Assembly: GCA_900617105.1 (NCBI GenBank)
Contig: UYFQ01000026.1
Location: 1-53,403, forward strand
From: Hydrurus foetidus
Taxonomy: Eukaryota
DNA: 53,403 nucleotides
Direction: 5' to 3'
Translations under genes and position numbers: made by a program
Shown: piece after piece, positions 7,528-47,318 of the stretch
Position numbering within the stretch: the stretch's first letter is position 1
Layout of the letters: the number at the start of each line of letters is the position of its first letter
Notes under the pieces: generated by a model
Database searches by the model: none
Seen by the model: the letters and a program-made list of their open reading frames with translations, nothing else
Told to the model about the DNA's origin: nothing

Positions 7528-8142
7528 GTCGAATCACTAATCGATATAAATCTCTCTTAAACTTAGTGAAGATCGATAACCCTTGCTCAGAAAAAAAATT
7601 CCAGAGCTGCACCTCGTACACTAACGGGTACTTTACGTTGGTAACAACGAGTGAAGGTATTCTGACCAACTCTTGAACTGAAAAGTTCTATGGCGTAAAA
7701 GCCAAATTTAAAGTGGTAGAAAAAGTGGTGTACCTTTAAGGTAGAAGATGTTGCTCGACGTCGACGAAAAGAAGTCTATAGACTAAGTTGATGTTGCTGG
7801 TGATGAATCTGTGATTCAATCGACCAGCGGAGCAAGCCTTAAATGGCTTCTGGGAAGGATAAATCGACTTCGACCAAGAATGTCAAGTTTGGAAGAGCCC
7901 AAACACGGGGATTCCAAGAAAGCAGGTAATCTGACTAACTCTAACTTAAACTACAGCTCTCTGAGCCAATGGCTGCGAGAGAAGTCGACTTAAAAGTCGA
8001 CGAGCGTAGCTCAGAAGTCTTATCTACAGGTTTCTACGAATAGAGGGACTGAGAAGTAAAAGATAAAGGGATGGACGGAATAATCTGTGAAGCACTCATC
8101 GACATAGCCCAAACTATCCTAGCACACAGTTGCTATCACAAC

Positions 8143-13100: not shown

Positions 13101-13535
13101 AGTATGGGCGTTCCTGAAATCGGCCTCCGACACTCTGAAGTTGTTCCCACCGCGAATCATCGCGATCGCCATCTCGACTGGCGGGTATCCCATACGCGCT
13201 ATCAGCTCCCTGACTGCTGCTGCTGACGCTATCTCACGTTTCGTGAACCTCATCAAATTCTCTCTGACGGTGGCGACTAGCGCTTGCTCGACGGTGTTGC
13301 GATGCGGCTCGAGTTCTGCCATGCCGCTCGCATCGCACACGTAGAATCGTCCAGTTGATCCTGGCAGATCCTGCCTACTGAAGCGGTATGTCGTCCTGCT
13401 GCCCGAAGCACCCCGACGCATGGTGGTACTGGATGTTGGCTCCACTGTCAACCATCGCTGCAAACGATAAGATGTTGGCAGTTGCTCCTCTGCTGTAATA
13501 GACAGGGCCGATCTCGCCGAAGTTACCCTCTTCAT
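10101..13535 (-). CDS. pol: Copia A pol (integrase, reverse transcriptase, RNase H)
   Basis: Integrase LSVDIM..MSDGE..IERRIQMVKER; RT KLKARLVAGG, VVDISGAYLNA, LKKALYG, IHVDDLL; RNase H FVDASYG..KSSTEAEL..YQDNQS..RTRHIQIRY. True frame joins gag-PR via a lesion near 13410. Confidence 0.93.
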   Translation of the reverse strand: MKRVTSARSALSITAEEQLPTSYRLQRWLTVEPTSSTTMRRGASGSRTTYRFSRQDLPGSTGRFYVCDASGMAELEPHRNTVEQALVATVRENLMRFTKREIASAAAVRELIARMGYPPVEMAIAMIRGGNNFRVSEADFRNAHTIWGKCLASMRGKTHKKSSPVADISLTPASAQQQQVLSVDIMYLETTAILIAVSTPLDMTLAVSLIRLDSAKTLRAAAVVQPALNEMISVLKSRNFLVHVIMSDGEEAIGKMRVELMALGIKVDVSAAGGHVARIERRIQMVKERIRAHINGRLPFTPNELCLIYLALFCVSRINCQQSGSRPGGLSPRELFSGRRVDGNLDFRAAFGDYAVCTVSNTDNTMSSRTEDCVVMLPSHNRTGSFKMLSLATGKIVTRNQFKILPMPQSVIMTLNAMAVCEGEIITQTKLHVFDELLFTNSLDKSSLPTFITNPPTQDDRIDKRAVQDPPTLLDLPSADNILEIPPCDVEGGVPAAVDTAAVPEEIEAIGVHGQDVLTPPTPPHEPALPSDIPDDASAPDSEPAAADTAQPVHPAAREQRRVPAPTERMVTRSSHTSEGAFVTDDGSAAASTKSTAASTHDVEEVLKRHKDELSKSNTANISVKEAFRARGDEAKKVIVSELKQMIDKRVWVPVMGGKLSAMQRASTIRSCMFLKQKNNPDGSFIKLKARLVAGGDQQDKSLYEDLSSPTVSTSAVFTLLAIAAHEERRVAVVDISGAYLNADMTLETPVHMRLDRTMTDLIIDIDPKYGKFTDARGGVTVHLKKALYGCVESSGLWYENLHATMLGLGYARNICDKCVFNRTGPDGHQCSVAIHVDDLLITSRSKSSVVHLVDGLRKRYDAITLIHGPAINYLGMAIDMHIPGQAMITTAGYCDEIVRVSGVKGSAKSPATEGLFETREGATAVSEPVRVWFHKVVAMVLYLAKRTKPECLVAVAFLSTRGNKCTADDVEKLQRLVRYIHKTRDSGVVLRPGASGVAVRLFVDASYGVHSDGRSHMGSCVVIGDVGAVHCRSSKQLIVTKSSTEAELVGLSDSANQSIFIRSFLIAQGYKMEPVTIYQDNQSCMALVERGRSRAERTRHIQIRYFWVKERVDTGGVRMEYLRSEDMYANVLIKPLQGSQFRR

Positions 13536-14268
13536 CTACTCTAACTCCCTTAGCTCCGAGCTGGACTCCGTCAAGGAGGATCGAATGCTGCGATTTCCTG
13601 ATGCCTGTCAGGAGGCTCGGATTGCAGAAGATGTTGACGGACGCCTGGTTGTCCAGCAACACATGGCTCCTCGTGAACAGTGCCACTTCGTTCGTCGTGA
13701 CGAACACCGCTTCGAAGCTCTCGTCATCCTCGTCGATCTCGCCTTCTGCGCCTGTGAGCATAGCGTGCTCCCCGACCTTGCGTTCATCGCAGTCTTTCGC
13801 GTAGTGGCCAGTCTTTCCACATACGAAACATGTCACCGTCGAGGCTTTCTTCTTTGCGACAGGAGTCTTGCCTTTCGCGCCTTTTCCTGCGACTTTTTCC
13901 TTTGTTCCAACCGGGGTGTCGGTCAGGAACGCGGAATGTTGCTCGGCGCCAAGGGGGACTCCTCCGCCGGCGTTCGTCCAAGATGACGCAACCCTGTATG
14001 CTCCGGCTAAGGTGGAAGGGTAGCTGTTTGGTATGTTTTGTACGGCGCTGTTACGCATATATGTCAACATACCGGTATACCTTTTCGGGTCTAGCTTACT
14101 GAGGAAGTCGATGGCTCTCATCGGTTCTTCCACCACAGCCATGCCTACACCCTTGTTGGCTAAAACCTGATTGTCGAATCTCGTTTTGAAATCCCCGATT
14201 ATCTCACGCTCACCCTGTGTGAGGTAGTTATACCTCAGTGTCTGTTCGTGGACGTTTACTGCTCTCAT
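13375..14268 (-). CDS. gag: Copia A gag C-terminal part with zinc knuckle and aspartic protease (copy 1)
   Basis: CFVCGKTGHYAKDC knuckle; protease VLLDNQASVNIF..ANILS. Continues in frame from 34712-34880 (HIYGEDD|SMRAVN) once gypsy B is removed. Confidence 0.9.
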   Translation of the reverse strand: MRAVNVHEQTLRYNYLTQGEREIIGDFKTRFDNQVLANKGVGMAVVEEPMRAIDFLSKLDPKRYTGMLTYMRNSAVQNIPNSYPSTLAGAYRVASSWTNAGGGVPLGAEQHSAFLTDTPVGTKEKVAGKGAKGKTPVAKKKASTVTCFVCGKTGHYAKDCDERKVGEHAMLTGAEGEIDEDDESFEAVFVTTNEVALFTRSHVLLDNQASVNIFCNPSLLTGIRKSQHSILLDGVQLGAKGVRVDEEGNFGEIGPVYYSRGATANILSFAAMVDSGANIQYHHASGCFGQQDDIPLQ

Positions 14269-14274
14269 GGAGTC

Positions 14275-14596
14275 TATGCTGGATCACGGCTTCGACGAAC
14301 TGGTCGAAGATGAAACGTTGATTGTCCAGTTGGGCAGATTGGCGCAACTGGAGATCCTGTCAGACGGATTGGACTGAACAAGGGATTTGGCTGACTCAAA
14401 GGAGTCGAAGTCGGTTTTGGTTTGTAGTAACGGTAGTTAATTAGATGTGAAAGGAGTGTGAGATTAGCTACGATGAAGTGTGTCTCGAGTTGAAGTTGTC
14501 GAACAGTCAGAAACCGAAAACTGGTCCGAAAAACTACGAGTGACGTGGATTGTGTATGTACATACGTGTGAGCAATGTGTGGTAACGAATGTAACA
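14275..14596 (-). repeat. Gypsy B 3' LTR (copy 1)
   Basis: Same sequence as 21612-21933 and 34386-34707; preceded by TSD AGTC (14271-14274). Confidence 0.93.
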
Positions 14597-14609
14597 CCAC
14601 CCTCTTCTC
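14597..14609 (-). other. Polypurine tract of gypsy B
   Basis: Minus strand GAGAAGAGGGTGG directly abuts the 3' LTR. Confidence 0.85.
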
Positions 14610-14843
14610 GGGTGAAATGTATTATAGGTGAAAACCGCAAAGCTGGAGGTACGAAATGTTTGTTAGGGTTGCTGTGACGTCATTACTTTTTTTTACTGGA
14701 TGAAAAAAACGGAAAAACAAAAAACTAACTGACAGTTGTGAGTGATAAATACATTGTTCGAATTCACATGAGATGCATAATTTAATAAGCAGCATACACT
14801 GCACACTGCGCAACATACTGCACAACACACTACACAACAGACC

Positions 14844-15482
14844 ATGAAAGACGAATTCAAGAAATCAAAGAATTTGTGCATGGCGGCGGCGATGGTTTTG
14901 CCGTTGTCAGCGCAACAACAGAGGTGGATGAGAGTAGGTGGTGATGCAGGCAACGCGTTCCAGAAGTCACTAGGGAAAGAGAATGATGATGGGCTATTAT
15001 ATGGTGCATCTGCTGAGGACGCTGTAACGTATTTGAAGTATGTTTGTGCGAGTAACAAGAAACGGGGAATTAAATTGAAATATGAGTTCCGGAGAGTTAC
15101 GGGGAGGCATGGGAAGATTCGTAGATGGACTGCACACTCAATTCCGAGTACAATTTTGGAGAAGAAAGGCATTTACGTGATATTTGGAAAATCGAAATGG
15201 GCGAATGCTATTCACGCGGCACTTATGAAGAGGATCAAGAAAGCGAGTTGCGTAGGTGAAGAGCTGGAGATATACAGCAAGGTGGCTCAGGGGATGAGCA
15301 GGAAATATCATGCAATGAGCATTCGTAATGATGAAAATGGTGTGAGACTGTTTGATAATGCATGCACTAACGGTAGCGTTGAGTTTAGTATTGAGAACTT
15401 GGCGGGTAAAATGATTGATTTGACTAACTGTTATTATTTTGATTTGTGTGAGAAGGTGAAGAAAACGAAGATAATTAAATAG
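14844..15482 (+). CDS. Antisense cargo ORF in gypsy B 3' region, 212 aa; candidate papain-fold Cys-His-Asp hydrolase (copy 1)
   Basis: Uninterrupted ORF with ACC-ATG start between the chromodomain stop (15651-15653) and the PPT; motifs NLC12MAAAM, GIYVIFG, YH156AMSI, LFD171N. Confidence 0.7.
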   Translation: MKDEFKKSKNLCMAAAMVLPLSAQQQRWMRVGGDAGNAFQKSLGKENDDGLLYGASAEDAVTYLKYVCASNKKRGIKLKYEFRRVTGRHGKIRRWTAHSIPSTILEKKGIYVIFGKSKWANAIHAALMKRIKKASCVGEELEIYSKVAQGMSRKYHAMSIRNDENGVRLFDNACTNGSVEFSIENLAGKMIDLTNCYYFDLCEKVKKTKIIK

Positions 15483-15650
15483 AGTTTTTATTAGGGGGCG
15501 AACCCACATTTTGAATGCCGTCCTCACATAATAGCTTCAACTATTGCTACAATGAGTGGGAAAAGGAATGTGGGCAAGCCTCAGACGTGTTCACAAAGTC
15601 GGAGAATTCCAGCTTGATTATGATGGAGCGATTTTTTGAAGGTAAGTTTT

Positions 15651-16217
15651 TTATTTGTATTGTGTTGGAATGATATTCGACATGTTGTTGTTGTTGAGGT
15701 AGTCGTGTACAACAGACACTCTCTTCATTTCAGCCCATGGTTCCCATGAATCATGTGCTGAGGAATAGTTGTGCCAACGGATTAGGAACTCGAGCGACGA
15801 TACTTTTTGGGATTGCCACGGTGAGTGATAACCAAATCGACGATATATTCATCATGGTCTATTAGTGCTGCTGTTTCTGCATCGGTTTTTGAACCAATGA
15901 ATGGCGTCACTCTACTTGAGTGAAGTATTGAGATGATGTTTGTAACGACATGTCGGCAGTTGATATCGTTTTTTGATTGTTTTATCACTTCGTATGGTCC
16001 GAGGAGTTTCGGAGAAAGCTTACTGGATCGTAGGGATTGCGGAGTCTCTAATGGATTCCATAGTATGTAATCTCCAGGTTGGTATGTGTTGTGCGAAGTA
16101 GGAGGCGTGTTTAATTGACGTTTACGGCGTAGCGATTCTTGATATAAACTAGTTATTGATCGTACGATTGCTAGGTTGCGATCAAGAGCTGTTACAAGAT
16201 CACAATACGTGTGACCT
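15651..16217 (-). CDS. Gypsy B integrase C-terminus with GPY/F motif and chromodomain (copy 1; one frameshift)
   Basis: KLSPKLLGPYEV; EYIVDLVITHRG then, in a shifted frame, LEFLIRWHNYSSAHDSWEPW..VHDYL..QYK-stop. Confidence 0.88.
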
Positions 16218-16486
16218 TGTGGTCTGACGGCGGGGCCTAGGACGGGAGGCGAAGTTGGAGAAGGCGGAGGACGGAAGGCGTGGGCAAACGAAGGCAAAGT
16301 CGAGAGTCGGTGGAATAGACTTGTGTTAGTATCTTACAGTTGAGTATATACAAGTGATGTGTACGCTAAGTGCATTCACGTCATATGTGGAACTAAGACC
16401 TAAAAGTGGAATCTGAGCGTAATATACCTATTGTACCTAGTTAACCTAGACACATTGTATTCCCTTAGGAATGCAATAAGGCTACA
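16218..16486 (-). repeat. Gypsy C 3' LTR (copy 1)
   Basis: TGTGG..CTACA, 269 bp; matches 23555-23823 and 29015-29283; PPT GGAAGAAGGGGTAG adjacent on the minus strand (16487-16500). Confidence 0.93.
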
Positions 16487-16685
16487 CTACCCCTTCTTCC
16501 TTTTTGAAGATCTTTGAAGATATTTGATTTGATATACAGAAAATATGAGATGAAACGAATGTCATTTATACTGATATAGATGAAACGAAGACCCGTAGGT
16601 TTTACTGACTAAACTCTCCAAAAAAGACCCGTAGGTAAAAAAAATAGGAGAGAATCCTCATGGATAAAGTTTCAAATATATTAAG

Positions 16686-17340
16686 TCATCGATGTTGCTT
16701 ATTGATTAATTTAGTCATGTTATTATGACGTAAATAATCATGAAGTTTATCAACATCACGAAGATTTGAATAAGGTTCCCAAGTGTTTTTGTCTGAAGGG
16801 TAATTTAACCATTTGACTAAAAACTCTATGTGGGTACGTTGGTGTTTGCCACGATGATCAAGAATGTCTTCAACAAAGTATTCCATGTGATCACGTCGTG
16901 CAACATCCAACGGATTTGTGATTGAAGGGTCAAATAGAAAAGGTTTCATTGCAGAAACATGAAACTCTGAAGTTTTCTGAGTGACTAAATCATAAAGTGT
17001 GTAACGCGAATTTTCGCCACTAACGACTTTTAATGGGCCTCTCCAATGCGTGTGAAGACGTGAAGGAGGGGATCCATCGCGATAGTGCACTAAGACATAA
17101 GAGTCTTTTGGATAATCTACATGCTGAAAAACTTGAGACTGACTTTGATGAAGCAAATCTGTGCGAAGAAGTTCTTTAGCAGAAGCTTTAAGAAGACTGT
17201 CTTGCGTTTTGAGTAGATTGCTCATACGCTTTGACAAAGGTTTGTCATCAGTAACATTTCGCTCAGCAGGAGGTAAAAAGATACCTCTATCGAGTTTTAG
17301 TACATTTCCGAAAAGAAGTTGAGAAGATGATATTTTTAAA
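16686..17340 (-). CDS. Gypsy C integrase C-terminus and chromodomain (copy 1, runs into garbled junction)
   Basis: HWRGPLKV..FHVSAMKPF..YFVEDILDHRG..EFLVKWLNY..NTWEPY. Confidence 0.88.
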
Positions 17341-18990
17341 CGATCACTGTGATTAAATTTAAAATTCGTTGCACAAATCCGTGACGTTTTATAATTTCTA
17401 GTGTGACATTATCATGTTAGCACGAAGAGTCTATTTCTTTATTCATGCGCGAACTGTGATATTTAGAGCCTTGGTCGACAATGACGTTTTAATAATAATC
17501 TTAATACGTTCTGAAGTGTGGCATACAGAACGGATGTATATCAAACTTTTTAGCCGAAGTAGCAAGAGATTTTGCTGTTGAAAGTGCTGTAAGATTCTGT
17601 ATGAAACAGTTCAACCATCTTGTGATAATATCGATTTGTTGTACGCCGTATGGGAACGGTCAATCTATGTAAGGCCCAGAGAATTTAGAAATAGCAATAT
17701 GAATGATGATTTAACATATTTGATTCTGACAACACGACAAGTGACTGCCACGGAGAGATTATTGCCAAATATCTTTTTCAAGGAGGAAAGTGCGCTCACC
17801 GAAATCCCCGATCAATTGTGCTACTTTACATGTGGACCTCAGGCATCGATGTGAAACTGTATGAGGAAGTCCATCAATAGAAGCTTGATCTCCTAGTCAG
17901 TTGGGCGTTCTCAGAAATTATCAGGCTGCATTTCCTTGTGTATTATTCATTTTAAATGAACCATATTCCAATAAGCTCACCACATCCGTGATCTCCTTTT
18001 GATTTGAACTTGACCATCATTGGACACAAAATAATATGATCTGCAGGCACAGAAGTTTGAGTTTCGAGAGAACGATGACAACTTTTTGTGCCACCCAACG
18101 ACTGAGCTTTGTTAAGATTCGCCTATCTCTTTCCGAAAAGTACCTCTAGTGGCAGTGTGCTTGGCGGATCACTTTGCACGTCCTGATTTTGAAAGATTTC
18201 ATCACATTCCTGCTCTGAGATCATCTATTGTCCATTATATTCATATCTCATGGTTAAACCTGAGGTAAGTTATAGAGCGTCCATGTCTTGAAGCTAATCG
18301 CCATCCATACCTCTTGAGTTGTCCTTCCACTGGTGGAATACGGAACAGTCTTGTTCGTCTCGTTATCAGCAGTGTCGGTAATTAGGCAACCTACACTTAT
18401 TCGCGTTTAAGGCAGCGTCACTGTTGAAACGACAAACATCGTGAATATTCCGATGTCGGACCCCAATCCCATGCATGGGAAGTATAGATATCATCAACCA
18501 CAGACGTGTCTCTAACGCAGGGTTTAGTCATTCTTCGGTGTCAGCACAAACAAGTCGCGTTGTGAACTTGCGTCTTCGGATCAGAAGTCTATGATCAGGT
18601 CGGTCATAGTGCGATCCAAGCGCATGTGCAACGGTGTCTCTAACGTCATGTCCGCATTCAGGTATCGCCACTGATGTAACTACCGCCATCGGCGCTCACT
18701 ATGTGCAGCGATCGTAGCAGGGTGAACACGGCGCTGGTCACAAGGTAAGTGAGACAGGTGTCATAAAGGCTCTTGTCCTGCTGGTCGCCCCTGTACCAGC
18801 CTGGTTGTGCTTGATGAAGCTTCCGTCTGGGTTGTTCTTTTGCTTCAAAAATATGCAAGATCTGATTGTTGATGCCCTCTGCATCGCTGACAGCTTAACT
18901 ACCATGACCGGCACCCGATACTCGCTTGTCGATCACTCTGCTTCAGCTCCGAGACGATGACTTTCTTGGCTTCGTCACCTCGTGACGTGG
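17341..18990. other. Garbled mosaic junction, probably unpolished or misassembled consensus
   Basis: Indel-riddled patches match 24660-25400, then both 10800-11100 and 3470-3770, then 11240-11650 with rising identity. Confidence 0.75.
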
Positions 18991-19378
18991 AATGCCTCCT
19001 TGACGCTGATGTTCGCCGTATTGCTCTTGCTCAGCTCGTCCTTGTGGCGCTTCAGCACCTCTTCCACATCGTGCGTCGACGCCGCTGTGCTCTTTGTACT
19101 CGCTGCTGCGCTTCCGTCATCCGTTACGAATGCACCCTCGCTCGTGTGTGATGATCGAGTCACCATTCGCTCGGTGGGTGCAGGCACCCTGCGTTGCTCT
19201 CTTGCTGCCGGATGCACTGGTTGTGCCGTGTCCGCTGCCGCTGGTTCGCTGTCTGGTGCGGATGCGTCGTCGGGAATGTCACTCGGAAGTGCCGGTTCGT
19301 GAGGCGGTGTGGGTGGTGTAAGTACGTCTTGTCCGTGCACCCCAATTGCCTCGATTTCCTCTGGTACTGCTGCCGTGT

Positions 19379-20872
19379 CTACTGCCGCTGGTACCCCCCC
19401 CTCCACATCGCAGGGAGGAATCTCGAGAATGTTATCGGCAGATGGTAGGTCGAGGAGGGTTGGTGGATCCTGCACCGATCGTTTGTCGATCCTGTCATCC
19501 TGAGTGGGGGGTTGGTAATGAAGGTTGGCAAGTTAGATTTGTCGAGGCTGTTGGTGAACAGCAGTTCATCAAACACATGCAATTTCGTTTGTGTGATTAT
19601 CTCCCCTTCGCAGACTGCCATGGCGTTCAGGGTCATGATGACTGACTGAGGCATCGGCAGTATCTTGAACTGGTTCCGCGTGACGATCTTGCCAGTAGCG
19701 AGTGATAGCATCTTGAACGAGCCAGTCCTGTTATGAGATGGTAGCATGACAACGCAATCTTCAGTACGCGACGACATTGTGTTGTCAGTGTTAGATACTG
19801 TACAGACGGCGTAATCCCCGAATGCTGCGCGGAAGTCCAGGTTCCCGTCAACCCGCCGTCCTGAGAAGAGTTCCCTCGGAGACAGACCCCCTGGTCTTGA
19901 TCCTGACTGCTGGCAGTTGATACGTGATACGCAGAATAGTGCAAGGTAGATTAGACATAGTTCATTCGGAGTGAATGGCAGTCTACCGTTGATGTGGGCG
20001 CGTATTCGCTCCTTCACCATCTGGATGCGTCGCTCGATTCTCGCCACGTGACCTCCAGCTGCACTGACATCAACCTTGATTCCAAGTGCCATCAGCTCCA
20101 CCCTCATTTTGCCGATAGCCTCTTCCCCGTCCGACATGATGACATGTACCAGGAAATTCCTGGATTTCAGGACCGATATCATCTCATTCAGTGCAGGCTG
20201 TACCACTGCCGCTGCACGTAAGGTTTTTGCACTGTCAAGTCGAATGAGACTCACGGCGAGAGTCATGTCAAGTGGGGTTGATACAGCAATAAGTATTGCA
20301 GTGGTCTCCAAGTACATGATATCTACACTCAGCACTTGTTGCTGTTGAGCTGACGCAGGTGTCAGGGAAATGTCCGCGACGGGCGATGATTTCTTGTGCG
20401 TCTTCCCACGCATGCTGGCGAGACACTTCCCCCAGATAGTATGGGCGTTCCTGAAATCGGCCTCCGACACTCTGAAGTTGTTCCCACCGCGAATCATCGC
20501 GATCGCCATCTCGACTGGCGGGTATCCCATACGCGCTATCAGCTCCCTGACTGCTGCTGCTGACGCTATCTCACGTTTCGTGAACCTCATCAAATTCTCT
20601 CTGACGGTGGCGACTAGCGCTTGCTCGACGGTGTTGCGATGCGGCTCGAGTTCTGCCATGCCGCTCGCATCGCACACGTAGAATCGTCCAGTTGATCCTG
20701 GCAGATCCTGCCTACTGAAGCGGTATGTCGTCCTGCTGCCCGAAGCACCCCGACGCATGGTGGTACTGGATGTTGGCTCCACTGTCAACCATCGCTGCAA
20801 ACGATAAGATGTTGGCAGTTGCTCCTCTGCTGTAATAGACAGGGCCGATCTCGCCGAAGTTACCCTCTTCAT
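19379..20872 (-). CDS. pol: Copia A integrase (duplicate copy, frameshifted at a G run ~19505)
   Basis: Near-identical to the N-terminal part of 10101-13535. Confidence 0.85.
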   Translation of the reverse strand: MKRVTSARSALSITAEEQLPTSYRLQRWLTVEPTSSTTMRRGASGSRTTYRFSRQDLPGSTGRFYVCDASGMAELEPHRNTVEQALVATVRENLMRFTKREIASAAAVRELIARMGYPPVEMAIAMIRGGNNFRVSEADFRNAHTIWGKCLASMRGKTHKKSSPVADISLTPASAQQQQVLSVDIMYLETTAILIAVSTPLDMTLAVSLIRLDSAKTLRAAAVVQPALNEMISVLKSRNFLVHVIMSDGEEAIGKMRVELMALGIKVDVSAAGGHVARIERRIQMVKERIRAHINGRLPFTPNELCLIYLALFCVSRINCQQSGSRPGGLSPRELFSGRRVDGNLDFRAAFGDYAVCTVSNTDNTMSSRTEDCVVMLPSHNRTGSFKMLSLATGKIVTRNQFKILPMPQSVIMTLNAMAVCEGEIITQTKLHVFDELLFTNSLDKSNLPTFITNPPLRMTGSTNDRCRIHQPSSTYHLPITFSRFLPAMWRGGYQRQ

Positions 20873-21605
20873 CTACTCTAACTCCCTTAGCTCCGAGCTG
20901 GACTCCGTCAAGGAGGATCGAATGCTGCGATTTCCTGATGCCTGTCAGGAGGCTCGGATTGCAGAAGATGTTGACGGACGCCTGGTTGTCCAGCAACACA
21001 TGGCTCCTCGTGAACAGTGCCACTTCGTTCGTCGTGACGAACACCGCTTCGAAGCTCTCGTCATCCTCGTCGATCTCGCCTTCTGCGCCTGTGAGCATAG
21101 CGTGCTCCCCGACCTTGCGTTCATCGCAGTCTTTCGCGTAGTGGCCAGTCTTTCCACATACGAAGCATGTCACCGTCGAGGCTTTCTTCTTTGCGACAGG
21201 AGTCTTGCCTTTCGCGCCTTTTCCTGCGACTTTTTCCTTTGTTCCAACCGGGGTGTCGGTCAGGAACGCGGAATGTTGCTCGGCGCCAAGGGGGACTCCT
21301 CCGCCGGCGTTCGTCCAAGATGACGCAACCCTGTATGCTCCGGCTAAGGTGGAAGGGTAGCTGTTTGGTATGTTTTGTACGGCGCTGTTACGCATATATG
21401 TCAACATACCGGTATACCTTTTCGGGTCTAGCTTACTGAGGAAGTCGATGGCTCTCATCGGTTCTTCCACCACAGCCATGCCTACACCCTTGTTGGCTAA
21501 AACCTGATTGTCGAATCTCGTTTTGAAATCCCCGATTATCTCACGCTCACCCTGTGTGAGGTAGTTATACCTCAGTGTCTGTTCGTGGACGTTTACTGCT
21601 CTCAT
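20712..21605 (-). CDS. gag: Copia A gag C-terminal part and protease (copy 2)
   Basis: Same protein as 13375-14268. Confidence 0.88.
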   Translation of the reverse strand: MRAVNVHEQTLRYNYLTQGEREIIGDFKTRFDNQVLANKGVGMAVVEEPMRAIDFLSKLDPKRYTGMLTYMRNSAVQNIPNSYPSTLAGAYRVASSWTNAGGGVPLGAEQHSAFLTDTPVGTKEKVAGKGAKGKTPVAKKKASTVTCFVCGKTGHYAKDCDERKVGEHAMLTGAEGEIDEDDESFEAVFVTTNEVALFTRSHVLLDNQASVNIFCNPSLLTGIRKSQHSILLDGVQLGAKGVRVDEEGNFGEIGPVYYSRGATANILSFAAMVDSGANIQYHHASGCFGQQDDIPLQ

Positions 21606-22180
21606 GGAGTCTATGCTGGATCACGGCTTCGACGAACTGGTCGAAGATGAAACGTTGATTGTCCAGTTGGGCAGATTGGCGCAACTGGAGATCCTGTCAG
21701 ACGGATTGGACTGAACAAGGGATTTGGCTGACTCAAAGGAGTCGAAGTCGGTTTTGGTTTGTAGTAACGGTAGTTAATTAGATGTGAAAGGAGTGTGAGA
21801 TTAGCTACGATGAAGTGTGTCTCGAGTTGAAGTTGTCGAACAGTCAGAAACCGAAAACTGGTCCGAAAAACTACGAGTGACGTGGATTGTGTATGTACAT
21901 ACGTGTGAGCAATGTGTGGTAACGAATGTAACACCACCCTCTTCTCGGGTGAAATGTATTATAGGTGAAAACCGCAAAGCTGGAGGTACGAAATGTTTGT
22001 TAGGGTTGCTGTGACGTCATTACTTTTTTTTACTGGATGAAAAAAACGGAAAAACAAAAAACTAACTGACAGTTGTGAGTGATAAATACATTGTTCGAAT
22101 TCACATGAGATGCATAATTTAATAAGCAGCATACACTGCACACTGCGCAACATACTGCACAACACACTACACAACAGACC

Positions 22181-22819
22181 ATGAAAGACGAATTCAAGAA
22201 ATCAAAGAATTTGTGCATGGCGGCGGCGATGGTTTTGCCGTTGTCAGCGCAACAACAGAGGTGGATGAGAGTAGGTGGTGATGCAGGCAACGCGTTCAAG
22301 AAGTCACTAGGGAAAGAGAAAGATGATGGGCTATTATATGGTGCATCTGCTGAGGACGCTGTAACGTATTTGAAGTATGTTTGTGCGAGTAACAAGAAAC
22401 GGGGAATTAAATTGAAATATGAGTTCCGGAGAGTTACGGGGAGGCATGGGAAGATTCGTAGATGGACTGCACACTCAATTCCGAGTACAATTTTGGAGAA
22501 GAAAGGCATTTACGTGATATTTGGAAAATCGAAATGGGCGAATGCTATTCACGCGGCACTTATGAAGAGGATCAAGAAAGCGAGTTGCGTAGGTGAAGAG
22601 CTGGAGATATACAGCAAGGTGGCTCAGGGGATGAGCAGGAAATATCATGCAATGAGCATTCGTAATGATGAAAATGGTGTGAGACTGTTTGATAATGCAT
22701 GCACTAACGGTAGCGTTGAGTTTAGTATTGAGAACTTGGCGGGTAAAATGATTGATTTGACTAACTGTTATTATTTTGATTTGTGTGAGAAGGTGAAGAA
22801 AACGAAGATAATTAAATAG
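22181..22819 (+). CDS. Antisense cargo ORF in gypsy B (copy 2), 212 aa
   Basis: Same as 14844-15482 except Q40K and N47K. Confidence 0.7.
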   Translation: MKDEFKKSKNLCMAAAMVLPLSAQQQRWMRVGGDAGNAFKKSLGKEKDDGLLYGASAEDAVTYLKYVCASNKKRGIKLKYEFRRVTGRHGKIRRWTAHSIPSTILEKKGIYVIFGKSKWANAIHAALMKRIKKASCVGEELEIYSKVAQGMSRKYHAMSIRNDENGVRLFDNACTNGSVEFSIENLAGKMIDLTNCYYFDLCEKVKKTKIIK

Positions 22820-22987
22820 AGTTTTTATTAGGGGGCGAACCCACATTTTGAATGCCGTCCTCACATAATAGCTTCAACTATTGCTACAATGAGTGGGAAA
22901 AGGAATGTGGGCAAGCCTCAGACGTGTTCACAAAGTCGGAGAATTTCAGCTTGATTATGATGGAGCGATTTTTTGAAGGTAAGTTTT

Positions 22988-23554
22988 TTATTTGTATTGT
23001 GTTGGAATGATATTCGACATGTTGTTGTTGTTGAGGTAGTCGTGTACAACAGACACTCTCTTCATTTCAGCCCATGGTTCCCATGAATCATGTGCTGAGG
23101 AATAGTTGTGCCAACGGATTAGGAACTCGAGCGACGATACTTTTTGGGATTGCCACGGTGAGTGATAACCAAATCGACGATATATTCATCATGGTCTATT
23201 AGTGCTGCTGTTTCTGCATCGGTTTTTGAACCAATGAATGGCGTCACTCTACTTGAGTGAAGTATTGAGATGATGTTTGTAACGACATGTCGGCAGTTGA
23301 TATCGTTTTTTGATTGTTTTATCACTTCGTATGGTCCGAGGAGTTTCGGAGAAAGCTTACTGGATCGTAGGGATTGCGGAGTCTCTAATGGATTCCATAG
23401 TATGTAATCTCCAGGTTGGTATGTGTTGTGCGAAGTAGGAGGCGTGTTTAATTGACGTTTACGGCGTAGCGATTCTTGATATAAACTAGTTATTGATCGT
23501 ACGATTGCTAGGTTGCGATCAAGAGCTGTTACAAGATCACAATACGTGTGACCT
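22988..23554 (-). CDS. Gypsy B integrase C-terminus and chromodomain (copy 2)
   Basis: Same as 15651-16217; continues from 29288 (PLLPG|HTYCD) after removing gypsy C. Confidence 0.88.
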
Positions 23555-24012
23555 TGTGGTCTGACGGCGGGGCCTAGGACGGGAGGCGAAGTTGGAGAAG
23601 GCGGAGGACGGAAGGCGTGGGCAAACGAAGGCAAAGTCGAGAGTCGGTGGAATAGACTTGTGTTAGTATCTTACAGTTGAGTATATACAAGTGATGTGTA
23701 CGCTAAGTGCATTCACGTCATATGTGGAACTAAGACCTAAAAGTGGAATCTGAGCGTAATATACCTATTGTACCTAGTTAACCTAGACACATTGTATTCC
23801 CTTAGGAATGCAATAAGGCTACACTACCCCTTCTTCCTTTTTTGAAGATCTTTGATTTGATATACAGAAAAAAAGAGATATGTAAAACATATATATGAGA
23901 TATAGATGAAACGATTATGTCAGACTTTTACTGACTAAACTCTCCAAAAAAGACCCGTAGGTAAAAAAAAATAGGAGAGAATCCTCATGGATAAAGTTTC
24001 AAATATATTAAG

Positions 24013-27000
24013 TCATCGATGTTGCTTATTGATTAATTTAGTCATGTTATTATGACGTAAATAATCATGAAGTTTATCAACATCACGAAGATTTGAATAA
24101 GGTTCCCAAGTGTTTTTGTCTGAAGGGTAATTTAACCATTTGACTAAAAACTCTATGTGGGTACGTTGGTGTTTGCCACGATGATCAAGAATGTCTTCAA
24201 CAAAGTATTCCATGTGATCACGTCGTGCAACATCCAACGGATTTGTGATTGAAGGGTCAAATAGAAAAGGTTTCATTGCAGAAACATGAAACTCTGAAGT
24301 TTTCTGAGTGACTAAATCATAAAGTGTGTAACGCGAATTTTCGCCACTAACGACTTTTAATGGGCCTCTCCAATGCGTGTGAAGACGTGAAGGAGGGATC
24401 CATCGCGATAGTGCACTAAGACATAAGAGTCTTTTGGATAATCTACATGCTGAAAAACTTGAGACTGACTTTGATGAAGCAAATCTGTGCGAAGAAGTTC
24501 TTTAGCAGAAGCTTTAAGAAGACTGTCTTGCGTTTTGAGTAGATTGCTCATACGCTTTGACAAAGGTTTGTCATCAGTAACATTTCGCTCAGCAGGAGGT
24601 AAAAAGATACCTCTATCGAGTTTTAGTACATTTCCGAAAAGAAGTTGAGAAGATGATATTTTTAAACGATCACTGTGATTAGAATTTAAAATTCGTTGCA
24701 CAAATGGAAGTGACGTTTTATAATCTTCTAGTGTGACATTATCGAATGTTAATGCACGAAGATGTCTATTAACTTCTTTATTCATGCGCTCAACAATAGC
24801 ATTTTCTTCTTTAGAGTATGCTAAAGTAAGACAATGTTGAGTGCCAATAAGAGTTAGAAACTCTCTAATAACTTCGGAAATGAAGTGTGGCCCATTATCA
24901 GAACGGAGTTGGAGAGGTGCGCCGAAACGACCGAAGTGTTGCAAGAGGCATTTAGCTGTTGAAAGTGCTGTAGCATCTTCTGTATGAAACAGTTCAACCC
25001 ATCTTGTGAACGTATCGATAATTACGAGTACGTACCCGCCGTCTGGAAACGGTCCTATGAAGTCTATGTTAAGGCATTCCATAGGTGTGTAAGTAGAAGT
25101 TGAGAAACCATGAGCATGTATTGGTATCTTTAACATACTCATTTTCTGACAACACGAACAGTGATCTATGAACCACCTGACGTGCTGACGCATATATTGC
25201 CATACTATCTTTTTGTCAATGAGACGCTTTAAAGTGCGCTCAAGGCCAAAATGCCCAACTTGTGAATTGTGTACTTTACTGATTGTATTGTACTGATCAC
25301 GTGTTAGAATTTTCAATAGTATTAGCAGACATGATTGCATCAGGAGTATATTCCTGAGGGAAATCAACCATGTTATTGCGACAGAGTCGAGACATCGAAT
25401 CAGCTATATCATTGTTAGCACCAGGTATATATTCAATTTTAAATGAATATTCGGATAAGGCCATAAACCACCGAACAATCATTGGATTTGAATTATCCTT
25501 GATGTATAACAAGTTACGATGATCTGTACGCAATGTGAACGTACGATCACGTAATAGCGATTTTAAATACGTGCACGAATAAAAGATAGCATATGCTTCT
25601 TTTTGTATAACAGCCCAACGAAGCTGAGCTTTGTTAAGTGATTTACTGACAAATGCTATGGGCGTTTCTTGACCGTCAACTAGCTGTAAAAATAGGCACC
25701 TACACCATAGTCCGATGCATCAGTGTGCAAGTAAATCGGATCGGTGTCACTTAAAAAGTGCATAGTCGTGCATTTTGAAATCTCGGATTTGATCAAATTG
25801 AATGCTCTGAGAGCTTCTATTGTCCAAGTTATTTTCTTATACTTATTATAGTTAAGAAGCAACTGATGTAACGGGTATACAACAGTAGAAGCGTTTCTAA
25901 CAAAGTCGTGAAAATAATTAACCAATCCTAAAAAACTTTTGAGTTGTTTAGATAGTACTGGTTTAGGAAAATCTAAGACAGTCCGTATTTTTTCTTGTGA
26001 CATTCTAAGTCCATCTGCAGATAGAACTTTGCCAACATAATCTATTTCGGCATAGCCTAGATAACACTTATTCGGTTTAAGGAATATTTTGTGTTTTCTA
26101 AATCGATCAAACACAAGACGAAGTCTAGAAATAAGTTCGTCAATGTCTTTACCGAAAACATTGCAATCATCTATGTACATTTCGCATATAGAGTATATCA
26201 GCCCTGCTAACACAACAGTCGTCATAATCTGTTGGAAATAGGAGGGAGCTTGTTTAGGCCCAAAGGGTAAACGAGTGAATTGATATACTCCGCAGAAAAG
26301 TATGAATGCAGTATAAGCACGTGCAGCAAGTGTAAGTGGTGCTTGATGGTAACCTTGAGTGAGGTCAAGTACAGCAAACACTTTTGCTTTATGTGCACCT
26401 ATTCTACGCAACATCTCACCGATGTGTGGAATAGGATGTGATTTATCTTCGGTACAATTGTTGAGATTCCGAAAATCAATACACATGCGCTTAGTTCCAT
26501 CAGATTTTGGAACTAGCAAAACTTGGCTATAATAAGCCGCGTTCGATTTTTCAACAATATTTTGTTTTTCAAGTTTTTTATTTGACTGAGAATGTCAGCT
26601 TGATCAACTGTTGATTTAGCCCATGGAGGTTGTCTATTTTAGGAACTCTCCATTGGTCGTCATTGACATGAAAGTCAAAGGGTGGAATATCAGCAGGAGT
26701 GGCCGAAAGTTCACTGCTAAATATATCCTTGAATTCGTGTACTAGTAACCGAAGTTTATTTTTCTGATCTTCATCACCTGCTAAGTTTATTAGCGAGAGT
26801 GGGTCAGTATCAGGAAATTCATCTATCCAAGGTGAAAACGAGTCCTTGATCGAGTCGTCGATTTCGTCCTCATCAGGGGGCACAGCCTCAAAAAGTCTTT
26901 CAGACTCTTGTATTAGTGAAGCTAGAATAACATGTGTTTGGGTTACTGCCGGTTTCACCTTTTGGGTTAAAGGATCGACCTTTGGGGAGCCATCAGAGGG

Positions 27001-27450
27001 TTGCAACTTCTCCTTAGGCTGACAGCCACACGTTATATCCACTTGTTCAGAAGATAAAACTTCCGCTAATGAGGTAGTGCTTGATGAAGCATTGGCAGAT
27101 ATTTGATCGGGGAAACGTGAAAATAAATTCAATTCGCGAATTGCTTTTCGTCCCACTATTAGATCAAATTTTGATTCGTTTAAAACATAAGCCGTGATTT
27201 GAAAAGTATAATAATTATTTAAATCAGGGCAAAAATAAGAAAGAGTTAAGTCTATAGTGTCAGAAATATCATAACAATGATTATCTAATCCACTACAAAC
27301 TTTACACAATTTCTTTGAAGAGTTAGAAACGAATTGTGTGAAATTATGATTAGTTATAATGCGGCGATGTATAAAGTTGCCAGCAAAAGAGCCGGTGTCC
27401 AGGAGAGTAAAGACTCTATTACTTTTTCCAGCATAACCTCCTGTGAGAGG
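24013..27450 (-). CDS. pol: Gypsy C pol (protease, RT, RNase H, integrase, chromodomain), broken by several frameshifts
   Basis: Protease VFTLLDTGSFAGNFI (~27370-27416); RT 25680-26519 (MCIDFRNLN, LDLTQGYHQ, MYIDD); RNase H HTDASDYG, RTDHRNL, IADSMSR; integrase 24357-25367 (H..GHFG..CSCC, IDFIG, RSDNG, ENAIVER); chromodomain 24013-24276. Confidence 0.93.
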
Positions 27451-28912
27451 GGAGATACGAAGAAAGGAATAAGTTCTGGATCATCGGAAAGAATAGATGA
27501 TGAATTTAGGTTGCATAGTTGCTCACCTTTGTGTTTCTTCGCAGCGTTTGTCGAGTCTGCTGTTGAAGTAGCAGGTTTTGACGAAGAGGAAGAAGAAGAG
27601 GAAGACGATGAAGAAGAGGTCGATGTCTTAGGTAAAGTTGGAATAAACTTAGCCTTTGAATCGACTTTCAACAACTGCTTGTGACCCTCAGAGTTGATAT
27701 AGGGTGAGTCTGTACTGTTATAGTACGGAGACGTAGTGTAGAAACACGTGGCGACGAAATGGCCAAGTCTCCCACAACCTGTGCACAGAGGTCTTTCGAA
27801 TTTGTCAGACTTGTCTGATTGCACTGATTGTTCGCTCTCTCGTGGACGTTTTTGATTTTGTCCTGAGAGGAACGAGGAGGGGCTTTGATTTGGCGAGAGT
27901 GATCACCATACAAAGGAGAGACATCAATGAACCGTAAGGCATCAATTGATTCTCGTAGCTTAGCAAGCTGCGCAAGCCATACGAATCGAAAGTCTTCGAT
28001 TGTAATGAGTCTTGGCGTTGTATTGTTAAGACTACGCTGTAACACTGCTCTCCAATTGATAGGTTCGACAGGCAACTTATCGATGAGAATTTTGGTTGCC
28101 TGAAGTTGGAGAGCGGGTGTTGCATCAGGGAATCCATCAACAATATCAGCTAAAAGCTGATCTGTCTTGTCTTCCACTGATTTATCCTTCAGGTCGAATT
28201 GAAGTGCGACCTGAGAGACAGTTTCAATGAAACTCAGCTTGTCAGTTCGATTGACAGCTGATGTAGGAACTGTGAGATTGAGTTCTCTACAGAACAATTG
28301 ATTCGACCAATGTTTCCAATTGTTACAGGAGTCGCGACGATCGGGATCAGTTGCAAACTTACGCTTGAGAAGCGTTGTAAACGATTGATGGTTGGAAACA
28401 TGGACTACGTCAACTGGTTTAAATGGAGTTCCATTTGAAAGGAGGACCTCCATTACCCGTAGTACTTCCTGACGAGAGGGCACGGCGCTCAACTTAGGAG
28501 CTCTCTCACCCGTCTGCACATATTGCTGGGGTGGTGCCATCGTCCTTGGAATAGGATTCTCAGCAATAGCTGGTGTCGCAGACGAATCTGGTATCGCAGC
28601 CGAAGCTGGTATCGCAGCCGAAGCTGGTGTCGCAGCCGAAGCTGGTTGCAATGACAAAGCAGATAACGCCGAAATGACAGGAATATCAATGACAGACATG
28701 ACCGCAGGCTCCGAATTCCGCTGAGGAATCGGTGCAGACAGGTCGCCGGCGGGGTCCTGAGCCGCAGGTGGCCCAGGAGACTCTGCGTCTCCACTACGAT
28801 TGTGATGGTCGTCATAGCGTTGTCGGAACGCGACGGCTACAGCACGAGGTTGCTGCTTTCGCCGAAGGGCGTTGATGGAGGATGTCTTTTTGTCTTGGCG
28901 GCGTAGAGCCAT
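27354..28912 (-). CDS. gag: Gypsy C gag (frameshifted) with CCHC knuckle and poly-Ser linker
   Basis: 414-aa ORF 27668-28912 begins ~100 bp after the 5' LTR; CTGCGRLGHFVATC in 27354-27824. Confidence 0.85.
28569..28646. repeat. 18-bp in-frame tandem repeat (~4 units) in gypsy C gag, encoding PASAA(T/I)
   Basis: GCTGGT(G/A)TCGCAGCCGAA units. Confidence 0.85.
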
Positions 28913-29014
28913 AACTTTGACGTGATGGTTTAAGTTGGAGGAGTCGAAGACAAAAAGTCGGAAAAGAGAAAAACTTTCTCGGAGGAAACTTCGGTGAAGA
29001 CCGAATATCGATAT

Positions 29015-29283
29015 TGTGGTCTGACGGCGGGGCCTAGGACGGGAGGCGAAGTTGGAGAAGGCGGAGGACGGAAGGCGTGGGCAAACGAAGGCAAAGTCGA
29101 GAGTCGGTGGAATAGACTTGTTTTAGTATCTTACAGTTGAGTATATACAAGTGATGTGTACGCTAAGTGCATTCACGTCATATGTGGAACTAAGACCTAA
29201 AAGTGGAATCTGAGCGTAATATACCTATTGTACCTAGTTAACCTAGACACATTGTATTCCCTTAGGAATGCAATAAGGCTACA
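29015..29283 (-). repeat. Gypsy C 5' LTR
   Basis: Matches 23555-23823; followed on + by TSD ACCT. Confidence 0.95.
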
Positions 29284-29287
29284 ACCT

Positions 29288-34175: not shown

Positions 34176-34385
34176 AGTTGAGGAAAGAGAAGAGATTTGT
34201 AGACTTTTTTTCTTCTTCTTTTTTGAGTGGCCTTGCGGGCTTATAAGATTGAGACTGAACTTACCTCAGAGATCTAAATTCCCGCTGAGCCAGGGCGATC
34301 ACTGCTTTCTGGCGGATAGGAAATGAATCAACTGAGGAGAGTCGATATTTCAAACGTTGTCTCGTGTAAACTAGAAATATATATT

Positions 34386-34707
34386 TATGCTGGATCACGG
34401 CTTCGACGAACTGGTCGAAGATGAAACGTTGATTGTCCAGTTGGGCAGATTGGCGCAACTGGAGATCCTGTCAGACGGATTGGACTGAACAAGGGATTTG
34501 GCTGACTCAAAGGAGTCGAAGTCGGTTTTGGTTTGTAGTAACGGTAGTTAATTAGATGTGAAAGGAGTGTGAGATTAGCTACGATGAAGTGTGTCTCGAG
34601 TTGAAGTTGTCGAACAGTCAGAAACCGAAAACTGGTCCGAAAAACTACGAGTGACGTGGATTGTGTATGTACATACGTGTGAGCAATGTGTGGTAACGAA
34701 TGTAACA
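34386..34707 (-). repeat. Gypsy B 5' LTR
   Basis: Same sequence as 21612-21933; element-sense ends TGTTAC..AGCATA. Confidence 0.93.
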
Positions 34708-35269: not shown

Positions 35270-35294
35270 CTCGATGCGCTAATTAGTTTAATTC

Positions 35295-35611
35295 TGTTGG
35301 GGATTCTCTGAATCCGGATGCTTTGCACTCGTGGCGACCGGTGACCCAAGGCTCGTAAAATAGACTTGTATTGCGTAATTACTTGAGAATTAAACTTGTG
35401 CGCCGGCATCAATCAAGACGGCAACGAAGCTTTACATTTCAACGCAATTGCACATGGTCATCCGTGTTGAAGATAGATGAATGGGTGGCTACACTAGCCC
35501 ACACATCCAACGGTCCACGGTCCTCACCACTGGGGTGCCCACCGCTGACCGTCGGGATCCATGCATACGCTATACAACTACAGCAGTGTCTTTTCTCCGG
35601 ATATTCCAACA
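35295..35611 (-). repeat. Copia A 5' LTR
   Basis: Matches 9595-9911; followed by TSD GTGTA. Confidence 0.95.
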
Positions 35612-44400: not shown

Positions 44401-47144
44401 ATGAACGACAAAAGCGATCAGAGCTGCCGTCAACTTTGTCGGAAGAGGAAAAGGCAGGCTGTGTAGGGTGCAGCGAGCCTTATTCTTGACATGCCTAATT
44501 GCAGCTTCTGCATGTGGGGCATGGGAACCGTGGCCAAGGATGTTGAGATCAATATCGAGATTCTCAACGTCTCTACGAACTATCTTCACTGCTCCTTCGC
44601 CGTCGGATGTGAAGCCTTTTGAGAGATGCTGTTGTATGTGCAGAAGCAGAGCTTGTCCTGTAAGTGGACGTGATTTCTCATTGTGACTTCCGATTGATTT
44701 TTCTATCCCAGGTCCTAGATGTGTGACCATTATCAGCCCGAGGATGACGGATATGCTGAGGAAGAAAGTCTGCCCCAAGAAGTAGAACAGATCGACCTGT
44801 AGTTCCTGAGCTACTGAATCGTGCAGTGGAATTCTGTCATCACCGCGTGTCTTCGTTTTCAAGTGAGTACCTTGACCCAGTTGATACGCTGCAGGCGTTC
44901 GGTATATGTCTTGAGCAATCACAAGGTCAGACCTTGTGAACGGAATGTCTTTCGTGCTGCCTCGCTGAATGAACTCTGCCGCAGCTTTATAACTGATGTA
45001 TCCCATTCGTTGAATAAACTCGTAGGCGAGATGATAGCTAGCGAGCTGCTTCGCAGAGTACTTGAATGCTTTGGGGTTTATCGCGATAGCGTAGGCGTGG
45101 GCGACTTTCGCGAGGTCCAGCACGTAATGTCCGTTTGCACAATGTAAGGTGTGAGTTGAACCGCTAGTGGGAACAGCACTGAATGTGTCAGTGTGTGAGT
45201 TATATTGAATCACGTGTGTATCGAGCAGCTTGTGGTAACTGATTATATTCGCTGACATGTGTGGACTGAAGTAACATTTTAGACCGATGTCTGTGACGGT
45301 AGCCTCCATGTGAACCCTGACTCGATCTCCCGTGATACCCTGTCCGATGATTAGGTTGTCGGCTGTGTGCATGTCACTGACAATGCTCCGATTTCGGACG
45401 ATGTGGATACTGGACTGCGTGTCTAGTAGGATGATTGTGTCTTGATCATTAGTAACATTGGACAAGAACACGTTAGAGACGTTATCCTCGAGTTTGACCT
45501 CCATCTCGCGGCTGCATGTTTCGACGGATGAGTAAAATGTTGCCTCATCTTCATCGATGGCGTCGGTGAAATGGACGCTTTTCACCGTGCAAACTGAAGC
45601 CCGATGTCCCTTCCTCTTACATCTCCAGCAGACGATTTCACTTGGGGTTATGGGACCCTGTACCACTGTACGACCTTCTCGGCCGTCTTTATTCCCGCGG
45701 TCACCACGGTCATTACGGCCACCTCGACCTCCACACGCTTCTCCCTTTCCTCCCTCTACTTTATCGTCTGTTTGGGAGCAATAGACACTCTCCAGGTTGC
45801 CGCCACCAGTGCCACGGAAACGGATGATTTGGGCATCTTTGACCTCTCGCCAGAGTGTTGCGCTTGCAGCTGGGAGATCCGCAATTCCTCTGCGCTCGTT
45901 ATCAAAGTAATCTCTGGCGAGCTGGGCATACCGGGACATATCGAGCCTATTAAGGATTCCAACGACTAACTCCTCCTCCGGGATAACAGCTAATCCGACT
46001 GCTAGTCTTTCAAGTTGATGATCTTCGACTCGTTTGCGAAATGCAAAACTCGTTTCGTGTTGGAACATTCGGAGGCTAGCCCATGCTGTTTGGACCCGCT
46101 CTCTGTCTTGTCCCGGATTGCCGCTCTGTCGTGCAATATGAGTGGCACGTATTCTAGAGATGAGGAACAGGAGATCCCGCTCTAAGAATGCGGTTGGCCA
46201 GTCCTCGTCATCTTGTACCTCGCCTCTCGAGGATTCACTTAATTGTGAGTAGACCAAGGCGAATACTGCTAACTTCTGCTCTTTTATTTTCTTCGACTCC
46301 GATTTCCAATCCTTATGATCATTCTGATATTCTGATAGGACTGCTTTTCCAACATTCCCTGCTGGTATGTCTTCTGGCATGAGGGGCTCTTCGTCCTCCT
46401 CGCCGTACTCAGGAGGAGTTGACCAGAAAGCACGGCAAATGGATGGCTTGTAATTGATTGCGACATGCTCGCCCATCGTTTGCATGAAATCTATGGGCTT
46501 ATTTTCCTTCGCTGAGGCGCCGAAGTTTAAGCTGGGCAGCTCTGCATTACTGCCACGGAATTTGGGTTCTTTTTCCGTCTTTGCTTGAGCCTCTGGAGAA
46601 GACCTCCCGCGGCCAGCTCACCTTGCTTGGCCTCTCGGCCCTTGTCTATTTCCGCGTCCAGACATGGATTCGATCTGAGATTCTCTCTCACTTATATAAT
46701 CTTGGCAAATGCTCTTTGCTAGATGATATATATTTCTTTGTGTTCCGGTTAACCGTGAAAACACCCTTGAATATCCAGGCAATTGATGCAATTAGCCTAT
46801 CTGTTGATATTCGTGTTTCTGTTGCAATTCCTTTGCTACTGTAAGATAAACTCCTGTTTATTCCTCACAAGCCTTCGAGTCCAGTAGGTGCTACTGTATC
46901 TTGATCTCGAAGTGTAGTACTTGGAAGTAAGCTGGAAGCTTGTTTAGTTGAAACAAAGAAATATACCAGTTGCAACAATTACGACATATAAGCAAGCTGT
47001 ATATTCCTACTGCAACGGCAACGTGTGCGTCTTTCTCAATCAGTTGTGAATCATTCAGATGTGTGCTGTGCAACTATATTGATTCCACTTCAAGTATCAT
47101 GGATCACATCACAAAAGGTTCTTGGACCCAAGTCCTCCTGAACA
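41487..47144 (-). mobile_element. Ty1/copia LTR retrotransposon D (full length, decayed, no matching TSD)
   Basis: LTRs 41487-41898 and 46741-47144 (TGTTC..GAACA, several substitutions and a 7-bp indel); G-rich PPT next to the 3' LTR; gag-PR-IN 44122-46485 (CWRCKRKGHRASVC, LLDTQSS, QVDLF, SDGEG); RT 42794-43963 (KARLVAGG, YVDD); RNase H 42085-42540. Confidence 0.94.
42085..46485 (-). pseudogene. gag-pol: Copia D gag-pol, split by frameshifts and stops
   Basis: ORFs 44122-46485, 42794-43963, 42559-42828 and 42085-42540 carry successive copia domains. Confidence 0.9.
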
Positions 47145-47318
47145 CAAAGCACCTTCCTACAGTATTCCCGTCGATAAGTCATGGGATATCGACGGTGTCA
47201 AATCGGTTTGCCAACAGTTTTGACGGAGCGAAGCGAAGTAAACTGTGGCAGAAGAGAGAGCATTCTTCGTATCGTCTCTGGTCTCGGTGCTGTAAAACTG
47301 TCGTTACTTTCGACCAAA

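Follow-up and report, generated by a model that had tools for sequence, protein, structure and literature searches.

The LTR retrotransposon that we refer to as gypsy C carries, at its primer-binding position, a perfect 12-bp palindrome that starts on the terminal A of its 5' LTR. This palindrome is a real and selected feature that is spread over two distant gypsy lineages, with a total of 19 elements sharing between them 12 different sequences, each perfectly palindromic and 10, 12 or 14 nt long (the element count excludes L002 and L004, which belong to the same family as L003). We lean slightly towards the view that it works by intermolecular self-priming, a model built by analogy in which one element RNA would prime its partner. 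On the wider proposal we are evenly balanced, namely that a self-priming genome dimer would constitute a third start of reverse transcription beside the tRNA and Tf1-type starts, used by at least two distant gypsy lineages and probably by the GalEa copias.

The window, by which we mean the whole stretch of 53,403 nt that was analyzed, contains gypsy C with the following features:

23551..23554 (-), target-site duplication AGGT, 4 bp, flanking gypsy C; second copy at 29284-29287
23555..23823 (-), 3' LTR, 269 bp, of the LTR pair
23824..23843 (-), polypurine tract
24013..25403 (-), integrase, split over two frames, with a chromodomain at its C-terminus (rve E 6.4e-16, Integrase_H2C2, Chromo E 8.5e-14)
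25680..27902 (-), zinc-knuckle-like, protease-like and RT regions and the start of RNase H, in several pieces
27668..28912 (-), gag-like frame, opening at the first ATG past the palindrome site; relatives at 21-43% identity
28990..29005 (-), small hairpin TTCGGTCTTCACCGAA, overlapping the last two palindrome bases
29004..29015 (-), perfect 12-bp palindrome AATATCGATATT, its own reverse complement, at the primer-binding position
29015..29283 (-), 5' LTR, 269 bp, TG..CA, with 1 mismatch against the 3' LTR

The LTR pair with TG..CA ends, the target duplication, the polypurine tract and the order of RT-RNase H upstream of integrase make gypsy C a Ty3/gypsy LTR retrotransposon, and the chromodomain at the C-terminus of its integrase is the mark of a chromovirus. 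Its pol region was matched in Pfam by RVT_1 (E 7.8e-22) and RT_RNaseH_2, and the closest solved structures to its RT are 4ol8 and the Ty3 Gag-Pol 7q5b. The zinc knuckle and protease were assigned by eye, and a Pfam search with the gag-like frame returned no match. The coding region is split over several frames in the present sequence.

As the LTR pair and the flanking AGGT duplication define the end of the element, position 29015 is the last LTR base, and this terminal A is at the same time the first base of the palindrome. A sequence-only reading of this DNA had described a perfect 12-bp palindrome overlapping the last LTR base, with neither a TGG-type site nor a complement inside the LTR, and on all of these points we concur: the palindrome lies at 29004-29015, there is no TGG-type site within 30 nt of the LTR end of gypsy C, and the longest LTR complement is 5 nt, a length matched by 59% of shuffles. 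A tRNA scan of the 53,403-nt window found none. A 12-bp palindrome by itself is not rare, and it is the position that exceeds chance; the window has 16 palindromes of at least 12 bp (about 3e-4 per position), and the exact register is seen in both of the 2 window gypsies for which an LTR pair defines the ends.

The hairpin downstream of the palindrome, to which the same reading had drawn attention, is present in gypsy C (-5.3 kcal/mol, with 0 of 200 shuffles as good, for a piece picked after the fact) but amounts to a tendency in the relatives, where 15 of 19 elements fold better than the shuffled mean, 4 of 19 have z < -1.5 and the mean z is -1.0. The 12-mer of gypsy C is unfolded when taken alone and lies outside any hairpin loop in the predicted fold, and in local folds the palindrome is no more single-stranded than the flanking sequence. 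In the predicted dimer of gypsy C this hairpin would refold into an intermolecular duplex, and the leader scores -63.5 as a dimer versus -50.2 as two monomers, computed from a guessed transcript start. Among the variants listed for the deepest run (232 records), there is no substitution at or above 1% inside the palindrome of gypsy C, and indels occur on both sides of it; these records are contigs, which drop rare variants. One contig, from run X10, has the palindrome broken at 29012. Contigs from RNA runs match small parts of gypsy C only, and none of them spans the palindrome. Freshwater, biofilm, glacier and air metagenomes are among the runs that contain the window, and its host is probably a freshwater protist.

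Gypsy C is itself inserted in a second gypsy, and the window further contains two copia elements that serve as comparison cases:

34375..34386 (-), 12-bp palindrome AAATATATATTT of the gypsy hosting C, in the same register, starting on the last LTR base
34707-34386 and 21933-21612 (-), LTRs of the gypsy hosting C, with target duplication GACT
35285..35295 (-), primer site of copia A, with an 11-nt complement within its own LTR
46729..46741 (-), primer site of copia B, with a 13-nt complement within its own LTR

The RTs of gypsy C and of the host gypsy are 24% identical and fall in separate clades, and 4 of the 6 pairs in the host-gypsy palindrome are changed on both sides relative to that of gypsy C. 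The LTR complements of copia A and B take in exactly the terminal A, and none of 200 shuffles equalled either of them. This agrees with the earlier claim that the register of gypsy C is the same as that of the two copias. All four elements with LTR pairs in the window appear to be tRNA-independent. Three of them form a three-level nest (9595-35611), with gypsy C in the host gypsy and the latter in copia A. The LTR pairs of the nested elements are 99-100% alike, which suggests that these elements were recently active, and both gypsies have 4-bp target duplications.

Distribution of the palindrome among relatives

Relatives were drawn from metagenome, viral and genome contigs, along with searches of 21 genome bins. 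Bins titled as bacteria contain many eukaryote-type LTR retrotransposon contigs (L007-L042), which are probably contamination or eukaryotic passengers. In order to limit circularity LTR starts were set from the polypurine tract alone, and a palindrome was counted if it had at least 10 bp, started on the last A of ACA or ATA and lay 120-480 nt downstream of the LTR start. By this rule it is present in 15 of 22 loci, and in 15 of the 17 with at least 300 nt of sequence, against a frequency of 0.009-0.042 per locus in shuffled sequences. Of the 7 misses, 5 are loci whose sequence stops no more than 265 nt past the LTR start. The others are L022, whose RT is 71% identical to that of gypsy C and in which a homologous LTR end is followed by a non-palindrome (this site may be a 3' LTR plus flank), and L063, which has a weak chromodomain match. 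Relatives without a palindrome had been named in the sequence-only reading as the case that would speak against it; these two loci do lack the site, while 19 elements have it in register. In a set of 12 loci collected by gag similarity the palindrome was found in all 5 that reach back to the LTR region, with the LTR start falling outside the contig in L080 and L081. Two relatives of the host gypsy are also palindromic, one of them with the host's LTR end CAGCATA.

The palindrome begins on the LTR-terminal A in all 19 elements, stopping there exactly in 16 and reaching one base further into the LTR in 3. Most relatives have one assembled LTR copy, and in these the LTR end is therefore not fixed independently of the palindrome. 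Four elements share the exact 12-mer of gypsy C and another four share a second palindrome. The edges of the 12 palindromes follow a pattern, with A first (12/12), a purine second (12/12) and T third (10/12). Under a laxer rule the background of such sites is 21 in 77,266 nt, of which 9 are the junctions themselves. We also observed that the LTR ends in TA, not CA, at 34386 and 21612 and in L003, L006, L007, L048, L061 and L086, the terminal A always being kept. A third 12-bp palindrome of the window, AGTCTATAGACT at 7773-7784 (-), is preceded by T and lies about 300 nt upstream of the gag-like frame of another gypsy. It fits the edge pattern, and the window has no second LTR to fix the end of that element; its gag as a query drew in 3 weak relatives, none with an LTR junction.

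In a midpoint-rooted RT tree whose outside comparison consists of unnamed control elements, gypsy C and nine relatives form one clade (99/97), in which 8 of the 9 relatives are palindromic and the ninth is L022. The host gypsy and L084 belong to another clade (100/100), and the clade of gypsy C stands apart from unnamed control elements. Among the more distant gypsies L127-L140, a TGG-type junction was identified by eye in 6 of 14, with no palindrome there, and a lax palindrome scan of these controls gave matches in 4 of 14, none at a junction recognizable by eye. A TGG within 10 nt of the LTR end was found in 0 of the 19 palindromic elements, five of which carry a TGG at offset 11-19. When viral contigs were scanned with the single RT proteins of gypsy C and of the host gypsy, no relative emerged; the variability of the chromodomain alignment precluded a pattern scan, and a search with the integrase alignment returned two loci, both already in the set. 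Junctions are lacking in L001 (truncated integrase, no LTR), L055 (no LTR past the 3' motif described below), L075 and L082 (upstream DNA that is foreign or rearranged), L085 (which starts past the junction) and short contigs. In L024 the upstream DNA was examined for palindromes only.

Two-strand pairing and the proposed primer

One test suggested in the sequence-only reading was whether palindromy is kept while the letters vary, and this is what we observed: symmetry is retained in all 12 distinct palindromes up to and including the central pair, which is T-A in 8, A-T in 3 and C-G in 1. When halves of different palindromes were cross-combined, 0 of 72 combinations were palindromic. In an alignment of nine 12-mer junctions all 54 cells are paired, as against 33-61% in slid controls, and both sides change in 5 of the 6 pairs; these figures lean towards structure in that these nine of the 19 junctions were all chosen as palindromic. 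The bases of a hairpin loop need not be complementary. The predicted two-strand duplex has energies of -6.2 to -13.6 kcal/mol, with some of these highly AT-rich palindromes at the weak end (-6 to -7 kcal/mol), and the predicted fold-back hairpin lies at 0.0 to +2.9 kcal/mol in 19 of 19. Given that the center pairs are kept, the duplex is favorable and the fold-back unfavorable, we infer that the selected property is the pairing of two identical strands.

In the self-priming model two element RNAs would pair through the palindrome, one of them would be cleaved where the duplex ends on its 3' side, and the cleaved RNA would then prime the other. The position of the primer fixes the LTR end, and the primer must hence pair at the palindrome site. 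Its partner would be a second sense copy, since this is the only strand surely complementary in every family and since particles package an RNA dimer. The cut, after the 12th or the 11th palindrome base, would be made by the element's own RNase H if the analogy with Tf1 holds, and the 3' end of the primer would be either the U that faces the terminal A or the base before it. In HIV-1 one ribonucleotide stays on the DNA. The A-U pair that is constant at the edge of the LTR fits a primer that stops at this U and leaves a single ribonucleotide behind, and it fits equally a cut one base before. Plus-strand strong-stop DNA would copy the primer, such that any mutation in one half would reappear as its mirror image in the other half within a single cycle, and a new perfect palindrome could then be fixed through repair; such mirroring would explain fast turnover with perfect symmetry. 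The model has a gap, in that the upstream R-U5 tail of the primer would have to be trimmed so that plus-strand synthesis stops, and only one RNA may be cut. From an untrimmed primer plus-strand synthesis would run into an inverted copy of U5-R, and if both RNAs were cut the overlap for the second strand transfer would be lost. Two steps have precedents: the RNase H of Tf1 cleaves its own RNA duplex between bases 11 and 12 to give an 11-nt primer, and yeast particles are described as packaging an RNA dimer (both PMC7175516).

The covariation evidence as a whole speaks for two-strand pairing and not for priming as such, and it would also suit RNAs that paired for packaging alone, as at a retroviral dimer initiation site, with priming at the same edge left to a protein, an untemplated or a host-RNA primer. 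Palindromes are indeed reported to drive retroviral dimer formation, and those in the PBS to contribute to it in MMTV and HIV-2 (PMC5874298). However, pairing for packaging leaves the fixed register at the terminal A unexplained, both in the 19 elements and in the two copias, and retroviral dimer sites accompany a separate tRNA site, of which gypsy C has none. We regard this explanation as unlikely.

The same register could arise without a partner if the RNA were cut past the palindrome and a short hairpin folded back to prime in cis. Though a protein might stabilize such a weak hairpin, its energies are unfavorable in every element, its loop would need no complementary center, yet the center pair is kept in three forms, and the cut would leave the main part of the RNA detached from its primer site. 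Priming in cis is accordingly quite improbable. A cellular RNA, such as a tRNA half or a fragment of snRNA or rRNA, could also act as primer with the palindrome being incidental. The sharing of two palindromes by four elements each would suit a common host primer, and several Copia lineages are known to be primed by half-tRNAs (PMC6317226, PMC10886601). Against this, twelve perfect palindromes would require as many palindromic, nearly all-AU stretches in host RNAs, and the half-tRNA primers of plants are described in Copia only (PMC6317226), making a cellular primer very improbable.

The loose edge pattern of A, purine and T at positions 1-3 might alternatively mark a symmetric DNA site for a dimeric protein, for example integrase or a transcription factor, or a by-product of end-processing. 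The variation of the inner letters and of the length (10, 12 or 14) under perfect symmetry fits base pairing better, and a DNA site names no primer; we consider it highly improbable. Priming of the Tf1 type, from the 5' end of the same RNA, is the least probable explanation for the set, in that an LTR complement above chance is absent from 16 of the 17 testable palindromic elements, gypsy C included, despite the chromodomain that gypsy C shares with Tf1, the complements in both window copias and a 9-nt complement in the L003 family (0 of 200 shuffles), which on the basis of this match could itself prime as Tf1 does.

Relation to known systems

A palindrome of related form has been described in the fungal GalEa group of Ty1/copia elements, in which CHSeq1, a 9-bp sequence, is palindromic together with the final LTR A (PMC5445492). 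In the available text its authors propose that this site replaces the PBS, find that no model fits and offer the retroviral dimer site as an analogy. GalEa resembles gypsy C in having no tRNA site, a palindrome directly past the 5' LTR that includes its final A, and no LTR complement. The GalEa elements differ in being Copia with 5-bp target duplications and in combining a 10-bp palindrome with a downstream inverse complement, CHSeq2 (PMC5445492), whereas gypsy C and its relatives are Ty3/gypsy with a 4-bp duplication, 10-14 bp palindromes and broad paired change. A CHSeq2-like inverse complement 12-41 bp downstream was found within 1 mismatch in 0 of 19 elements, the best candidates having 2-5 mismatches of 9, which is the shuffle level. 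The site of gypsy C is thus not of the GalEa type, though it probably works in a similar way.

The Tf1/sushi group of Ty3/gypsy has, like gypsy C, a chromodomain integrase (PMC7175516, PMC4600332, bioRxiv 10.1101/2022.12.06.519325), and resembles the priming proposed here in being tRNA-independent and using a primer of ~11 nt from its own RNA, released as RNase H cuts an RNA duplex (PMC7175516). In Tf1, however, the RNA is primed by its own 5' end, the complement of which lies in the LTR (PMC7175516), whereas in gypsy C a second RNA would act as the partner, paired through the corresponding site. An LTR complement of at least 10 nt, as expected of the Tf1/sushi type, is present in both copias and not in gypsy C, with its 5 nt. 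Retroviral dimer sites and the PBS palindromes of MMTV and HIV-2 illustrate that two genomic RNAs can be joined through a palindromic stretch of the 5' leader and that neighboring hairpins can refold to an extended duplex (PMC5874298), which is predicted for gypsy C as well. These retroviral sites coexist with tRNA priming and are mostly situated in hairpin loops (PMC5874298), unlike the palindrome of gypsy C, which occupies the primer site and is in no loop. The polypyrimidine stretch of the dictyostelid Skipper chromoviruses is also unlike the site of gypsy C (PMC5006619), and the word palindrome has 0 occurrences in that paper. The Troyka and Helenus papers were considered as sources of palindromic primer sites and rejected, with 0 occurrences in both, and terms for such sites are absent from PMC12440569.

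The sequence-only reading did not recognize such priming as described. A palindrome that includes the final LTR A was in fact already in print, for one Copia group (GalEa), and it is the mechanism that is absent there, the available text giving no priming model (PMC5445492). For Ty3/gypsy we found no report of a palindromic primer site or of dimer priming in the full-text literature covered (including PMC6934838, PMC12859917 and PMC11042837), which lies mostly outside subscription journals and Repbase reports. In none of these sources did we find the occurrence in gypsies, paired changes running through the center or the dimer-priming model. If the self-priming model is true, the primer would be none other than the RNA dimer, which would link packaging to initiation, and the element would depend on no host tRNA and escape silencing by tRNA fragments. 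The model would also offer a mechanism, open to testing, for the GalEa site, which has had no explanation, and for LTR elements classed as having no PBS, which account for 6% of plant LTR elements (PMC6317226). The natural series of 12 palindromes constitutes a ready-made set of compensatory variants.

Further features of gypsy C and the window

The 3' untranslated region of gypsy C contains a conserved structured motif just past the pol stop codon, at 23913..23997 (-). Across 11 sequences of its clade 6 of 11 predicted pairs show compensatory change, and the motif consists of a covarying stem and an invariant 5-bp hairpin (for example, L020:3080-3163, L044:1915-2006 and L061:312-395). An Rfam search with the loci of 6 relatives gave no match; the motif could be a packaging, export or cleavage element. 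A pairing of U5 with this motif, judged by eye, was rejected, being absent from the LTR end of L007.

An open frame of 410 codons without a Pfam match is found at 47178-48410 (+). A 7-kb near-duplicate (95.5%) between 10772-17635 and 18122-25019, covering the 3' parts of gypsy C, the host gypsy and copia A, is either a tandem duplication or an assembly artefact. Two more stretches of gypsy RT are located at 2158-3090 and 4451-5365 (-), the first of which falls in the clade of gypsy C beside L024.
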